Part shown: in pieces, positions 20,980 to 61,117 of the stretch
Numbering within the stretch: the first letter of the stretch is position 1
How the letters are laid out: every line of letters starts with the position of its first letter
Origin: a virus
Lineage: Duplodnaviria; Caudoviricetes
Direction: 5' to 3' (one strand)
Length of the DNA: 64,000 bases
IMG/VR virus record: IMGVR_UViG_3300028601_000020
Made by a program: the position numbers and the translations under genes
The notes under the pieces: generated by a model
What the model saw: only the letters and a program-made list of their open reading frames with translations
The model's database searches: none
What the model was told of the DNA's origin: nothing

Positions 20980-21083
20980 AACAAACGAGGATTGTCTGTG
21001 TTCAAAATTTATCACGAAACGTAGTTGTGTATACGTTTATATAAAAAATTACAATACAGGCTAATCCTAGCGATCCTGAGACG

Positions 21084-21121
21084 AAAGACACAAAGAACAA
21101 TGTTCTCTGTGTCTTTTTTTG
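21084..21121 (+). terminator. Rho-independent terminator
   Basis: AAGACACA-A-AGAAC / GTTCT-C-TGTGTCTT hairpin followed by a T-run. Confidence 0.75.
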
Positions 21122-21138
21122 TTTACATGTTTCAAAAG

Positions 21139-21146
21139 AATAAATA
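21139..21146 (+). promoter_or_regulatory. Putative late promoter upstream of the holin cassette
   Basis: AATAAATA (1 mismatch to TATAAATA) just after the terminator. Confidence 0.45.
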
Positions 21147-21168: not shown

Positions 21169-21396
21169 ATGGATAAATTTATTGATATCATTAATAATGA
21201 ATCGGCCAGTTTTGATGAAATTGAATCTGCGATTACCATTCTAACCATGAGACGGGAAAACTTTGATTGGCAAGAACAAACATATAAGGCAAAATCTGAA
21301 GCAGCGTTAAATAATAAAAATTTTGTCACTGGAATTCTGAAATTATTGTATCTAAAAAAACAGAAATTAAAACCAAATGAGACAAAAAAGGAATGA
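21169..21396 (+). CDS. Hypothetical protein
   Basis: AAGGA RBS; ATGA overlap with the holin. Confidence 0.55.
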   Translation: MDKFIDIINNESASFDEIESAITILTMRRENFDWQEQTYKAKSEAALNNKNFVTGILKLLYLKKQKLKPNETKKE

Positions 21397-21743
21397 ATTT
21401 TTTCGGAGAAAATTTCACTTATATAATTACCGCCGTTGGTGTTGCTATGGTCGGTGGCGTTGCAAACTGGCTTATGAGTGAAGATCATACAATATTTCAA
21501 TTTGTTGTTGCCGTCTTTTTAGCTGGTTTCGCTGGATTCCTTGTAGGTGAATTGTGTATTGAAGCCAAGATTTCAGAATCATGGGCATTCTTCTTTTGTG
21601 GAACTGCTGGTCTTTCAGCGGAAGTTGTTTTAAAACTCTTGAGAAAATACGGACTGAAGAAATTGAGCAAATTGACCGGCGAAGAACTTACAGATTTTAT
21701 TCAACCGCTTAAAAAAGACAAAAAAGGAAACGAAGAGGAATAA
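21393..21743 (+). CDS. Putative holin (LydA / lambda-like, 3 TM)
   Basis: Three Gly/Ala-rich TM segments (GGVANWL; FLAGFAGFLVG; GTAGLSAEVVL) and a charged C-tail. Confidence 0.7.
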   Translation: MNFFGENFTYIITAVGVAMVGGVANWLMSEDHTIFQFVVAVFLAGFAGFLVGELCIEAKISESWAFFFCGTAGLSAEVVLKLLRKYGLKKLSKLTGEELTDFIQPLKKDKKGNEEE

Positions 21744-21746
21744 ATT

Positions 21747-22580
21747 ATGTATAGTGCAAGGATAGGAGAATATATTCTTAATTTTTTTACTCATTCTTCA
21801 ATTACTCCGATTCAAATGATAGGAGTAATTGAAATACTTATTGGTCTTTTTGGATTATATATTGCTCATTTGTTCAGAAGGAGCGTTATGTTCCGATTTA
21901 AATTGGCTATGGTTTATACTTTACCAATTATTGCAGGAATAATGTCAATGACTGATTTATCTGATATTCATTTTTACAAACATTTATTAATCTTGACTTA
22001 CATGTTATTCATTACTATACTTTATTGGCGTGAAGTTAAATCTTTGACCACAACAGAAGGTTATCACAAAAATTCACTTGCGAATTATCTTGACGATGTT
22101 CCTGATTTAATTTGGGTCAAGGACGCGGATATGAGATATACATATTGTAACAAAGCAGTTTTGAAAACTTTTGGTTTTTGTAAAAATGAAATATTAGGAA
22201 GAACGGATATTGAACTGGGCATAATCAAGAAAAGAAACAATGAACGATATGATTTTGATTTAATTTGTGATAAATCAGATCACGAAGTATTATTGTCCCA
22301 GAAAGCACAAAAAACAATTGAATCTGGATACATCAGAGATAATTTTTATTCATTTCAAGTTTATAAAGCTCCAATTCTGATTGAAAGATTAGATCCTCAT
22401 GATCCGTCAAAGAAACATATTGGATACATTGGAATTGCGCGGGATTTGACTTATGATGTTATTGATCATAAAGAGATTGAAGAAATGTTTGTGAATGACG
22501 AAATTGATAAGGCAATTAATCTGTTTTGTTTACACACAAAACGATATAAAAACATTGAATTAAAAGACAAGGAAAAATAA
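21747..22580 (+). CDS. Membrane-anchored PAS-domain protein without an output domain
   Basis: About 3 N-terminal TM helices, then LDDVPDLIWVKD.DMRYTYCNKA...FG....EILGRTD.EL...D.EVL...VYKAPI...IGYIGIARDLT (PAS_4/PAC signature). Confidence 0.82.
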   Translation: MYSARIGEYILNFFTHSSITPIQMIGVIEILIGLFGLYIAHLFRRSVMFRFKLAMVYTLPIIAGIMSMTDLSDIHFYKHLLILTYMLFITILYWREVKSLTTTEGYHKNSLANYLDDVPDLIWVKDADMRYTYCNKAVLKTFGFCKNEILGRTDIELGIIKKRNNERYDFDLICDKSDHEVLLSQKAQKTIESGYIRDNFYSFQVYKAPILIERLDPHDPSKKHIGYIGIARDLTYDVIDHKEIEEMFVNDEIDKAINLFCLHTKRYKNIELKDKEK

Positions 22581-22610
22581 ATTTCAATCAAAACTTCAAG
22601 AGGTGTAATA

Positions 22611-23315
22611 TTGAAGAATCTGATAATCCCTTTCATTGTTTCTTTTTTTGTATTTGCTCCAGCAGAATGTTTTACCAGTTCAACCGACCAATCCTATTTC
22701 AAATACAAATACAACAAAAAAACAGCAAAAGAAAGGATCATAAAAAATTACAAGGATTCTTTTTTTGTCAAGAAACCAAAGAAGATTCAAACAGAAAAAC
22801 CAGTCAAAACCAAAAAAGATGAAAGCGGCTCGCTTTTCGCCGAATTCAAAAATTTACGAAAACAATTATTAGGAGATTCAGAAGTGGAAAAAGTTCTCAA
22901 TATAACAAATTCAGACAGACATTGGCTTGCGTTAAATATTTTTCACGAAGCTAGAGGTGAAAATCTTCACGGTAAAATGGCCGTTGCTTTTGTGACTTTA
23001 AATAGAGTTGTTCACAGAGCATGGCCAGATACTATCAAAGATGTTGTTACACAGCCTTATCAATTTTCGTGGTATAATTCAAAGAAAGTACCTCCTATCA
23101 CCGCTGCCCAACAAAAATCATGGGAAGAATGTAAAAGAGTTGCAGACCTTTCAATTGAGTTGTATAATTCTATGGCAGAATCAGAAGAATTTGTAGTTGA
23201 CGGTTTAACACGCGGAGCAGACCATTATTTTGCAGATTACATCAAACCACCTAAGTGGGCTGCAAAAATGGCATATCAAGCAAAAGTGGGTCGGCATTTG
23301 TTTTACAAGATGTAA
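22611..23315 (+). CDS. SleB-like cell wall hydrolase (Hydrolase_2) with signal peptide
   Basis: LALNIFHEARGE...GKMAVA.VTLNRV...WP.TIKDVV.Q..QFSW...GADHYFADYI.PPKWA...VG.HLFYK. Confidence 0.9.
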   Translation: MKNLIIPFIVSFFVFAPAECFTSSTDQSYFKYKYNKKTAKERIIKNYKDSFFVKKPKKIQTEKPVKTKKDESGSLFAEFKNLRKQLLGDSEVEKVLNITNSDRHWLALNIFHEARGENLHGKMAVAFVTLNRVVHRAWPDTIKDVVTQPYQFSWYNSKKVPPITAAQQKSWEECKRVADLSIELYNSMAESEEFVVDGLTRGADHYFADYIKPPKWAAKMAYQAKVGRHLFYKM

Positions 23316-30688: not shown

Positions 30689-30696
30689 TATAAATA
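30689..30696 (+). promoter_or_regulatory. T4-type late promoter (rightward, baseplate operon)
   Basis: Exact TATAAATA. Confidence 0.8.
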
Positions 30697-58661: not shown

Positions 58662-58669
58662 TATAAATA
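58662..58669 (+). promoter_or_regulatory. T4-type late promoter
   Basis: Exact TATAAATA followed by AAAGAAA, the same context as 30689. Confidence 0.8.
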
Positions 58670-58709
58670 AAAGAAAGGTTCAAAAATAATGTTGAAAAAG
58701 GAGAAAGGA

Positions 58710-59351
58710 ATGAAAACATTTAAAGGATTAGTATTGCCGGTTGTATCATCATTTTTACTGGTTGGGTGTGCTGGTGACTACAAAGATTATTCAACTTCAA
58801 TTGAACGATCAAATACTGTTAATTCGGCATTAGGTGCGTCATATTTTGAAAATCAAAGCAAGATCATGAAAGAAGTTGCAAATAATCTTAAAGGCAACGA
58901 AACAGCACTTGTTTTGTTCGCAATAATGAGCCAACAAAATAACAATGAAATTGCAAAAACATTTAAAGCAGAACGTCCAGTTAAACCGACAACAGGAAAC
59001 GATGTTCTTAATACTGTTGTTGGAACAACAGTTCCGACTCTTATTCAATGGGGTGCAGGTGCATTTCTTGGAAACGAAATTGTTAAGGGCCTATCAAAAG
59101 CAGGGAAAGTTACTGTTAAAGGTGACGGAAATAACATGAATTATAAATCAGGAAATGCTTATCAGGACGGTAATGCAAAACTTGATGCTTCAAGACCTGA
59201 TAATTCTGGACAGACACACAATGAATATCTTGCTCCTGAAGAACCAGAAATTCCTGAAGGTGAGGTTCCTGAAGGTGAGTTTGTTCCAACTGAACCGCCG
59301 GCAGAATTTGATGATTTACCAATAGACATTCCAGAAATTCCAGCAGAATAA
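58710..59351 (+). CDS. Putative lipoprotein
   Basis: Lipobox LVGC after the signal sequence; Pro/Glu-rich C-tail. Confidence 0.7.
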   Translation: MKTFKGLVLPVVSSFLLVGCAGDYKDYSTSIERSNTVNSALGASYFENQSKIMKEVANNLKGNETALVLFAIMSQQNNNEIAKTFKAERPVKPTTGNDVLNTVVGTTVPTLIQWGAGAFLGNEIVKGLSKAGKVTVKGDGNNMNYKSGNAYQDGNAKLDASRPDNSGQTHNEYLAPEEPEIPEGEVPEGEFVPTEPPAEFDDLPIDIPEIPAE

Positions 59352-59363
59352 ACGGACAGTAAC

Positions 59364-59906
59364 ATGAAAAAACTTTTTTTACCAATATTCTTATCACTCT
59401 TTTTGGTTTTTTCTTCAGGATGCTCTCAAAAACATGTTGATTATTCTATTGATATGGCAATGATCAATGCTGATTATAATCTTTTAGTTGAAAGATATGA
59501 TGTTTTGCGAGCATTCGTGATTTCTAAATGGGAGATTTTTTCTGAAGCAGACAAGATGAAACTTTCTACCATTAATGATAATGTTGAACGAATCATTAAT
59601 AAAATAGATGTTTTAAGGTCTTCAAGGGCTTATGAACTTTCTCCAGCAGATATTGGATACATGTATACTCTTGGAAAACAATCTTATATTATGTCCAAAG
59701 AAATTTATATGAATTATGAACCACAATTGTCTCAATATGAAATTTTATCAATTAAAATGTTTGATGATAGAGTGAAGGATCTTGATAAACAAATGAACGA
59801 TCTTATGTATGACCCACAAAACGCAGATATCAATTATACCTTGGTAAGTATTTTGACTGTTGTATCTGTTGGTCTCAAATTAATTCTACCATTATTGGTG
59901 CCGTAA
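59364..59906 (+). CDS. Putative lipoprotein with a C-terminal hydrophobic helix
   Basis: MKK-hydrophobic-SSGC; helical middle; C-terminal TM-like LVSILTVVSVGLKLILPLLV. Confidence 0.7.
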   Translation: MKKLFLPIFLSLFLVFSSGCSQKHVDYSIDMAMINADYNLLVERYDVLRAFVISKWEIFSEADKMKLSTINDNVERIINKIDVLRSSRAYELSPADIGYMYTLGKQSYIMSKEIYMNYEPQLSQYEILSIKMFDDRVKDLDKQMNDLMYDPQNADINYTLVSILTVVSVGLKLILPLLVP

Positions 59907-59907
59907 T

Positions 59908-60210
59908 ATGAAAAAGGGGAGAAAAACCAGCGAATTTGTTGTAACTATTGTTACAGGTGTTTTATCTGCCGGTATTGGTCTTGGTCTTATTGATCCAAAT
60001 ATTCTTGATATTTCTGCAAAAGTTATTTCAGACGCAAGGGAGGCTTCAACAGGAATGGATGGTTCAAGTCTTCAAGCGATTCTTGATACCATCTATAAGA
60101 TGTTTGCTTTGGGTGTCGGTGGATATACTGTTGGGGCTTATTCAAAGTCAAGAGGGGTTGCCAAAAGCAACACAAACATAAAAGAGGATTCTGATGAGGA
60201 AGACGGGTAA
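59908..60210 (+). CDS. Holin-like small membrane protein
   Basis: G.KTSEF N-terminal motif, two hydrophobic segments, Y..SRG.AK. Confidence 0.55.
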   Translation: MKKGRKTSEFVVTIVTGVLSAGIGLGLIDPNILDISAKVISDAREASTGMDGSSLQAILDTIYKMFALGVGGYTVGAYSKSRGVAKSNTNIKEDSDEEDG

Positions 60211-60565
60211 AGTTGCTTTATTTGCATTTTTTTCGTATATATTCATATTCACAACTGTTGCACTAAGCGCAAATTTTTCTGCAAAATGGGATTTTCCTAA
60301 AGATTATGAAGGTGTTATTCATGGGTATAAAATTTATCACAATGGAAAAAATATAGCAACGATTGCTGATCCTTCAAAAAGAACCAGTAAATTTGAAGCA
60401 GAACTTGATGAACACACAAAAAATGAATTTTATATGCGGACATACAAGACACACGGAGAAATAAAAGGGGAAAAGTTCACTGAATTTTCAGCACCAAGTG
60501 AAATCAAAGAATTAGAACAATTACCACCAGTTACTAACTTTTATTTCTACAGGCTAAACGAATAA
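60194..60565 (+). CDS. Secreted Fn3-like protein
   Basis: Signal peptide (ALSA); WD......GYKIY.NG pattern; similar to 2810..3163. Confidence 0.55.
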   Translation: MRKTGKVALFAFFSYIFIFTTVALSANFSAKWDFPKDYEGVIHGYKIYHNGKNIATIADPSKRTSKFEAELDEHTKNEFYMRTYKTHGEIKGEKFTEFSAPSEIKELEQLPPVTNFYFYRLNE

Positions 60566-61117
60566 ATGGAAAAACCATCAAAAGATTATGCAGACATAGA
60601 CATATCTCCGATTCCTTTTTTGATAAAGGAACGGGGAATTTTTGGTTTCTTTAAATGGAGAATTTCACAGAGACATTGGGTTCTTAATGAAGACTTTATT
60701 TTCTGGTGCGAAACTTCAAAATTGTGGATAAAAATTCCTAAAGGATTTGTTTCTGATGCTGCTTCTATTCCAAAAATTCTCCATTTCGTTATAAACCCTA
60801 TTGACGCAATTCTTTTTGGCTCTCTTGTTCACGACTTCATTTATAGATTTGATGCATTAATTGTCTGTGATGATGAAAATTTTGGTGATTGGACAATTGT
60901 TGAAAACATTTCAAGAAAATATGCAGACAAACTACTGAGAGAAATTTCAATGCAGTATGACAAAATTCCATGGGCGGCCGAGATTTGTTATTGGACAATC
61001 ATCCCATTCGGATATTTTGCTTGGGAACGTGCAAGAGGCAGAAATTATAAATTAACCTCAGTGAATCCTGATCCTCATGATGTTTATTTAAACAAAGGAA
61101 TATCGGTTAGGATATGA
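60566..61117 (+). CDS. DUF1353-family protein
   Basis: W.L.EDF...IPKGFVSD.ASIP.......P......SLVHDFIYR...R..AD.L.RE. Confidence 0.82.
   Translation: MEKPSKDYADIDISPIPFLIKERGIFGFFKWRISQRHWVLNEDFIFWCETSKLWIKIPKGFVSDAASIPKILHFVINPIDAILFGSLVHDFIYRFDALIVCDDENFGDWTIVENISRKYADKLLREISMQYDKIPWAAEICYWTIIPFGYFAWERARGRNYKLTSVNPDPHDVYLNKGISVRI

Follow-up and report, generated by a model that had tools for sequence, protein, structure and literature searches.

A membrane PAS protein paired with a LydA-type holin in T4-like phages of metagenomes: a candidate regulator of lysis timing

Introduction

Lysis timing sets the burst size and fitness of a phage, and to our knowledge the antiholins described to date either sense nothing (the dual-start products of lambda and phage 21) or respond to superinfection in the periplasm (T4 RI). 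Here, we describe a candidate regulator of a different kind, a membrane protein of 277 amino acids with a PAS domain (hereafter the PAS protein, the product of 21747-22580), encoded directly behind the gene for a LydA-type holin and ahead of that for a SleB-type hydrolase. The three genes lie in a 64,000-nucleotide stretch of viral DNA (IMG/VR record IMGVR_UViG_3300028601_000020, Caudoviricetes), referred to throughout as the window, with coordinates counted from its first letter.

The nearest described counterpart is found in phage P1, where lydA is followed by lydB, and LydB is an experimentally established antagonist of LydA, soluble and of unknown mechanism (PMC9025707). The P1 lydB gene overlaps the end of lydA by 4 nucleotides within a late operon, and the PAS gene occupies the slot of lydB, directly behind a holin gene, abutting or overlapping it, in what is very probably likewise a late operon. 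P1 LydA and the window holin both match PF16083, with 30.1 and 37.6 bits, respectively, whereas LydB is a soluble protein of 147 amino acids without a transmembrane (TM) helix (PF16084) and the PAS protein has three predicted TM helices and a PAS domain.

In T4, the holin is bound by a distinct protein that contains a sensing domain and postpones lysis in response to a signal (PMC8385771, PMC11413866). This system, RI/RIII with the holin T, is a functional analogue in that both phages are T4-like, but it has no sequence relationship to the PAS protein; RI senses in the periplasm, whereas the sensor domain of the PAS protein is predicted to be cytoplasmic and has a PAS fold, and the T4 holin is T-type rather than LydA-type. 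The lysis genes of T4 are scattered, whereas those of the window cassette are adjacent.

A PAS sensor in a phage is also represented by VqmA of VP882, a soluble PAS-helix-turn-helix (HTH) quorum-sensing receptor that acts on transcription and ties the lysis decision to a small molecule; we know of no other phage PAS sensor that controls lysis. Its fold matches that of the PAS protein at Z 11.8-12.8 with 20% identity (7dwm at Z 11.8, and 6ugl), but the PAS protein resides in the membrane, lacks a DNA-binding domain and is a product of the late lysis operon. Short LOV, stand-alone PAS and Aer-type membrane PAS proteins (Foldseek 7a6p, 7yx0 and 5j3w) likewise have a PAS core flanked by helices, lack an enzymatic output and signal via protein-protein contacts. 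Unlike short LOV proteins, the PAS protein has neither the flavin-binding Cys nor NCRFLQ, and its three-TM domain and C-terminal hairpin are unique to its family. In the literature, no paper was found that connects PAS domains with the holins or antiholins of phages, and the pair described here is a variant of the holin/antiholin theme for which no cultured or published example was found.

The holin and PAS genes form a conserved pair

The original prediction for this DNA, a PAS sensor embedded in a holin-hydrolase cassette, implied that homologues elsewhere should be linked to holin or hydrolase genes, and a survey of synteny found linkage to a holin gene throughout the core subfamily, defined as those members carrying a FRRxxxFRxKL loop motif, with PAS-protein identity running from 69% down to ∼30%. 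In 13 of 13 independent core contexts, the gene directly upstream of the PAS gene, in the same orientation, encodes a LydA-type (PF16083-type) holin (the window, L001, L002, L003, the P0015 contig, L008, L009, L010/L011, L015, L016, L099, L100 and L102/L103), with spacings that range from an 8-nucleotide overlap to a 26-nucleotide gap, and an endolysin gene lies nearby in most of them. Approached from the side of the holin, all seven IMG/VR loci with a relative of the window holin have a PAS gene behind it. In the window, the three predicted open reading frames (ORFs) are present in the order holin, PAS protein and hydrolase; the holin stop codon (TAA, 21741-21743) is separated from the ATG of the PAS gene by the 3 nucleotides originally claimed, and the ribosome-binding site of the PAS gene, GAAGAGGAA, is embedded in the last codons of the holin. 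A 30-nucleotide spacer precedes the hydrolase gene.

The surroundings of the pair are less constant. Hydrolase_2 is encoded directly downstream of the PAS gene in 7 contexts; in L009 the enzyme is a Peptidase_M15_3 four genes away, past an HNH gene and a DUF1353 gene, in L010/L011 it is a Phage_lysozyme two to three genes from the PAS gene, and in L102 no recognisable endolysin was found within 3.5 kilobases (kb). The flanking genes differ in L003, L015 and L102, as do the downstream genes in L003, L100 and L102. Because the type of endolysin and the flanks vary around an intact pair, the conserved unit is the holin with the PAS protein and not the PAS protein with the hydrolase.

Both genes of the pair are under constraint, as is the small ORF of 75 amino acids that precedes them. 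Comparison with strains 93-97% identical in DNA gave ratios of nonsynonymous to synonymous substitution (dN/dS) of 0.065-0.12 for the PAS gene, 0.04-0.24 for the holin gene and 0.06-0.09 for the 75-amino acid ORF, the mark of purifying selection. All three are genuine genes under constraint, the PAS gene strongly so.

The holin itself, a protein of 116 amino acids called holin-like in the original prediction, matches the LydA family Phage_holin_3_3 (PF16083) above its cut-off of 28.4 bits, as well as PHROG 785 (3.6e-11) and PHROG 6384, both annotated 'holin'; its hole-forming role is predicted from sequence. The protein contains three hydrophobic segments, and its cytoplasmic C-tail is rich in Lys, with an average of 8.4 Lys/Arg residues; 17 residues are invariant across 8 homologues. 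The gene has a single start, without a dual-start motif, and any antiholin would therefore be the product of a separate gene. No tblastn match to the holin was found in GenBank phages.

Architecture of the PAS protein

The AlphaFold2 (AF2) model of the PAS protein, for which 11 homologues were used, has a mean predicted local distance difference test score (pLDDT) of 82, rising above 90 over the PAS core (residues 110-233). The chain begins with an amphipathic helix (residues 2-16), followed by three TM helices (21-42, 47-68 and 72-101), a PAS domain (∼107-234) and a C-terminal hairpin of 35 residues (235-269) formed by helices 235-249 and 253-269. By sequence profile and predicted fold alike, the protein is a member of the PAS domain superfamily. 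PAS_4 matches residues 115-154 with 31.4 bits (cut-off 23.1), PAS_8 matches the N-terminal part of the domain with 23.1 bits (cut-off 21.8), and PAS_9 spans residues 119-235 end to end with a score of 19.3, below its cut-off of 27. The profiles named in the original prediction thus gave a divided result, with PAS_4 and the holin family above their cut-offs and PAS_9 short of it. Foldseek matched the fold to the PAS domain of BvgS (E 7e-7), and VIA-align aligned it to 95 of the 96 residues of the ThkA PAS domain (Z 12.9, root mean squared deviation 2.0), with Z values of 12.3-12.8 for the PAS domains of VqmA, PYP and CitA and more than 600 chains at a Z of at least 8.

Pfam identified no output domain of any kind, whether kinase, GGDEF or HTH; HisKA and HATPase_c gave no match at E ≤0.1, and the chain ends 43 residues past the PAS domain. 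Pfam, AF2 and structural alignment therefore bear out the earlier description of about three TM helices and one complete PAS domain without a kinase, GGDEF or HTH output. Neither the TM part nor the hairpin, each scanned separately against PHROG, gave a match. Identity as a histidine kinase was rejected on the missing HisKA and HATPase_c matches, and a LOV domain on the corresponding segment, which reads YTYxNKA in place of GXNCRFLQ, and on C134, which is Val, Ala or Met in homologues. A heme-binding PAS domain was rejected because no His of the PAS core is invariant in 21 sequences, and the TM domain as a holin paralogue on an hhalign probability of 0.1%.

Across 21 homologues, the mean Lys/Arg count is low in the N-terminus (0.4) and in the loop between TM2 and TM3 (0.5), and higher in the loop between TM1 and TM2 (4.1), which carries the family motif, and just after TM3 (3.5), which ends in LYWRE. 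Under the positive-inside rule, these counts predict an N-out, C-in topology, with the PAS domain in the cytoplasm, on the same side of the membrane as the C-tail of the holin.

Residues invariant in 21 sequences are found in all parts of the protein: G36, R45, K52, L53, R95 and E96 in the TM helices and loops; P119, D126, N135, Q204, G226, R232 and T235 in the PAS domain; and H241 in the hairpin. H263 is conserved in at least 90% of these sequences, so that H241 and H263 form a pair on the two hairpin helices. Tyr occupies one or both positions in most of the type ii relatives compared (see below), a substitution that points to a structural contact between the two residues and away from phospho-acceptance or metal binding. 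The hairpin is a candidate output module. A remnant of a dimerisation and histidine phosphotransfer (DHp) domain with a phospho-His was considered and rejected, as the helices are short (15 and 17 residues) and H241 lies only 6 residues past the DLT motif; H241 as a phospho-acceptor was likewise rejected on its replacement by Tyr in most type ii relatives.

The cassette as a probable late transcription unit

The T4 late-promoter consensus TATAAATA occurs 11 times in the window against 3.75 expected, a count reached in none of 100 shuffles (0/100). Several copies of TATAAATA stand just upstream of late structural genes, for example at 30689, 30718 (minus strand) and 58662, a distribution that fits the use of T4-type late promoters by this phage.

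Ahead of the cassette, the terminator and late-promoter-like site of the original prediction were both recovered, as a hairpin followed by AATAAATA. The hairpin is absent from the list produced by the terminator scan and was assessed by folding instead; it has a free energy of -17.5 kcal/mol (z -3.6), and 0 of 200 shuffles were as good. Five relatives (L001, L002, L003, L099 and L100) have the exact TATAAATA at the head of the cassette, usually as GTATAAATAATA, and in L001, L002, L003 and L099 a terminator-like hairpin lies just ahead of it. Because the exact consensus stands at the same position in these five relatives, the cassette is very probably a late transcription unit, the case in the window depending on the site with one mismatch. 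Four runs labelled RNA-Seq, flagged 'probably DNA', yielded short low-depth contigs that touch the holin, PAS and hydrolase genes, which bear neither way on expression.

Downstream of the cassette are homologues of gp33, gp59 and gp32, together with a T4 baseplate gene on the opposite strand, and because of these genes the window element is assigned by sequence to the T4-like myoviruses. Its gp32 is only 35-46% identical to the gp32 of any cultured phage, and the DNA of the cassette region has no match in GenBank phages. The features of the locus are listed in Table 1.

Table 1. Features of the cassette in the window, with the Hydrolase_2 regions compared among relatives
Feature	Position	Strand	Basis
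Rho-independent terminator-like hairpin and T-run, closing the upstream unit	21079-21124	+	RNA fold
Late-promoter-like AATAAATA	21139-21146	+	One mismatch to T4 late consensus TATAAATA
Soluble helical protein, 75 amino acids, first gene of the unit	21169-21396	+	ORF
LydA-type holin, 116 amino acids	21393-21743	+	PF16083, PHROG 785
Membrane PAS protein, 277 amino acids	21747-22580	+	PAS_4, AF2 fold
Three TM helices of the PAS protein	21807-22049	+	AF2 helices
Complete PAS domain, residues 107-234, predicted cytoplasmic	22065-22448	+	pLDDT, Foldseek, VIA, PAS_4
C-terminal helical hairpin of the PAS protein, residues 235-269, H241/H263 pair	22449-22553	+	AF2 helices
Hydrolase_2 (SleB-type) hydrolase, 234 amino acids, signal peptide, Lys-rich linker; probable endolysin	22611-23315	+	PF07486, PHROG 938
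Hydrolase_2 regions compared	window 22611-22900; L001 6834-7268; L002 6916-7506; L003 6839-7273; L099 2249-2884; L100 4237-4662		

Distribution of the family

A word-based search returned 11 homologues of the PAS protein, of 158-296 amino acids and all metagenomic, and an exhaustive profile search returned 74 representatives at E <1e-30. Among the latter, ∼50 short proteins (∼160-330 amino acids), counted as clusters at 50% identity, match the PAS protein from the TM region through the hairpin; the remaining matches are PAS repeats of very large bacterial kinases and are confined to the PAS core. No member of the family was present in 50,697 GenBank phage records, where tblastn gave no match for the PAS protein and the distant family member P0034 matched only generic PAS genes. 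One genome each of 185,579 bacterial and archaeal species contained no relative, with 14 pattern matches of which none encodes one. The ESM Atlas held only generic stand-alone PAS clusters, and a pattern scan of metagenomes retrieved mostly generic PAS kinases, with L014-L017 being informative. Judged by sequence, the family is restricted to phages, and its TM domain and hairpin are family-specific. DNA nearly identical to that of the window was found in landfill, wastewater and 'terrestrial' metagenomes, and 7 studies contain at least half of the sampled words when the run that may be the source of the window is excluded.

Beyond the core subfamily lie two further groups. The type ii relatives are longer (∼310-327 amino acids), with a longer N-terminal TM region and mostly Tyr for the His pair. 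Their PAS genes are preceded by a homologous gene for a protein of ∼140 amino acids (L013 3558-4001, L017 2701-3117 and L105 3073-3501), the stop of which overlaps the PAS start. This upstream protein has a single TM helix and coiled coils, is 31-40% identical among the three loci and may be a different holin-like partner, a hint that small membrane proteins coupled to a PAS membrane protein are not limited to LydA holins. L017 has, 1.7 kb downstream, a gene for a Hydrolase_2 enzyme whose N-terminus is hydrophobic and signal-like, and in L105 the pair stands behind genes of tail-fibre type. The divergent subgroup (P0047 and P0056; L012 2369-4771 and L104 1577-5186) is encoded in a different order, consisting of an HD protein, a PRPP synthetase, two small genes, the PAS protein and a Peptidase_M24. 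No holin was recognised in the L012 or L104 contexts, and members of this type may do something else. L012 also encodes a stand-alone response-regulator receiver domain, with a score of 30.6 bits, just above the cut-off.

The hydrolase and the first gene of the unit

The 234-amino acid protein encoded behind the PAS gene matches Hydrolase_2 (PF07486) with 66.7 bits over profile positions 1-100 of 100, and PHROG 938, annotated 'endolysin', at 4.2e-22. Its N-terminus, MK followed by a hydrophobic run and APA↓E, reads as a Sec signal peptide, in agreement with the SleB-type hydrolase with a signal peptide described originally. The catalytic part is conserved in L001, L002, L003, L099 and L100 and the N-terminus is variable, so that the mode of export differs, with a signal peptide and Lys-rich linker in the window and L099, a TM anchor in L002 and no export signal in L001, L003 and L100. 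In the hydrolase frame of L003, the conserved domain is not preceded by an ATG, GTG or TTG start codon.

The ORF of 75 amino acids, which is an addition to the original gene list, sits between the promoter-like site and the holin gene, and its stop overlaps the holin start (ATGA). Small ORFs are found in the same position in L001, L002 and L003, and not in L100. The protein has no Pfam family and no PHROG match at E ≤0.01, and so none to the rI or rIII families. By analogy, it could be a second, soluble lysis regulator, similar to RIII or LydB.

Proposed role of the PAS protein and alternatives

That the PAS protein is a holin-coupled regulator of lysis timing is, in our judgement, slightly more probable than that it is not. 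This reading is based on the linkage with the holin, the tight coupling of the two genes, the persistence of the pair through changes of neighbours, the late unit, the constraint on sequence, the precedent of P1 lydB, the shared cytoplasmic side and the single start of the holin gene. The PAS protein would be made late, in step with the LydA-type holin, as its dedicated partner. It would meet the holin in the inner membrane, through the conserved TM domain and/or through contact of the PAS domain and hairpin with the basic C-tail of the holin, and would determine when the holin triggers in response to a cue inside the cell that the PAS domain detects, for which a metabolite, the redox state and the energy state are candidates. 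Such a role would match that of LydB for LydA in P1 and of RI/RIII for T in T4, although the fold differs and the sensor would lie in the cytoplasm. The analogies to LydB and RI make delay of lysis (antiholin polarity) more likely than activation. The prediction of a complex between the holin and the PAS protein returned a score of 0.00 with 'no answer', which counts neither way.

If true, this would be the first example of a direct link between lysis timing and the internal state of the host, and it would provide a compact, ligand-controllable lysis switch usable as a tool. The clean pairing, the ∼50 diverged members and the small size of the proteins make the hypothesis directly testable. 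A wider version, in which PAS-gated lysis clocks form a class of sensor antiholins or activators that is common among the uncultured T4-like phages found in wastewater and landfill and lets burst timing track host physiology, is more tentative, and we regard it as possible but doubtful.

Several observations weigh against a regulator of lysis timing. Part of the conserved gene order could be synteny inherited among mostly T4-like loci, although this is made less likely by the replacement of endolysins and flanking genes while the pair itself stays intact. The PAS protein was rejected as a LydB homologue, having no PF16084 match and an hhalign probability of 0.5% (E 0.12), and as a whole it has no PHROG match at E ≤0.01, and thus none to a known family of lysis regulators. 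Neither a flavin nor a heme signature was found in it, and because a cofactor or ligand signature is lacking, its PAS domain may serve only for dimerisation. The 75-amino acid ORF is a second candidate regulator in the same operon, and the divergent L012 and L104 members lie in another conserved gene order, in which no holin was recognised.

The evidence from linkage and coupling would equally fit a structural co-holin or accessory subunit that builds or localises the lesion, as in two-component holins, with the PAS domain as a non-sensing module for dimerisation or scaffolding. The absence of a cofactor motif from the PAS domain, the invariant TM residues and the change of H241/H263 to Tyr in most type ii relatives, which suggests a structural pair, are in keeping with such a subunit, but a full, highly conserved PAS core that ends in a conserved DLT-type exit motif is what PAS domains used in signalling usually look like, and the TM domain is without similarity to a holin (hhalign probability 0.1%), and we consider this role unlikely. 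T4-like phages carry late membrane genes with a range of functions, so that another role of this sort might be envisaged, for example in superinfection exclusion, envelope remodelling or defence evasion; the tight and deep pairing with the holin is, however, best explained by stoichiometric co-function, which makes a role of that kind quite improbable.

Two of the alternatives were already raised in the original prediction. It had proposed a regulator of either the holin or the hydrolase, and the former is favoured, because the holin is constant in 13/13 core contexts and the hydrolase is swapped for other enzyme types. A regulator or escort of the endolysin, for example one that restrains the secreted hydrolase until the membrane depolarises, would account for the 7 contexts in which the hydrolase directly follows the PAS gene, and the window enzyme, with its signal peptide, would need restraint. 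Against it, the hydrolase family changes and the enzyme is several genes away in L009 and L010, the hydrolases of L001, L003 and L100 have no export signal, and the PAS domain is predicted to be cytoplasmic whereas a secreted enzyme would be periplasmic, so that we find this the least probable of the explanations. The other proposal was that the protein jams a host two-component system, which the missing kinase remnant and the mostly Tyr-substituted His pair of the sister subfamily do not support. In a broader form, the PAS protein would be a sensor or decoy that disturbs host signalling, for instance as a heterodimer with host PAS histidine kinases, and its position in the cassette would be incidental. 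The nearest matches outside the family are indeed PAS domains of large bacterial multi-PAS kinases, and in L012 the receiver domain lies two genes upstream of the divergent relative. These kinases match only the PAS core, however, while the TM domain and hairpin are phage-specific; neither a HisKA nor a HATPase domain is present, the conserved His, mostly Tyr in the sister subfamily, is not a candidate phospho-acceptor, and the 13/13 adjacency to the holin, the translational coupling and the late timing would go unexplained. A decoy is accordingly judged highly unlikely.

Neighbouring genes

Genes of homing-endonuclease type lie directly beside the cassette in two relatives, namely an HNH gene in L009 (1301-1606) and a NUMOD3-bearing gene in L100 (4612-5325, minus strand). 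Elsewhere in the window, a separate late unit (58662-61117) stands behind an exact TATAAATA. It includes a gene (59364-59906) for a protein of 180 amino acids with a lipobox (LVFSSGC) and a C-terminal TM helix, a topology similar to that of a u-spanin, followed by one (59908-60210) for a two-TM protein of 100 amino acids, and a secreted fn3-like protein is also encoded in the unit. A DUF1353 protein (52 bits) is encoded at 60566-61117, and a DUF1353 gene is also found near the PAS gene in L009.

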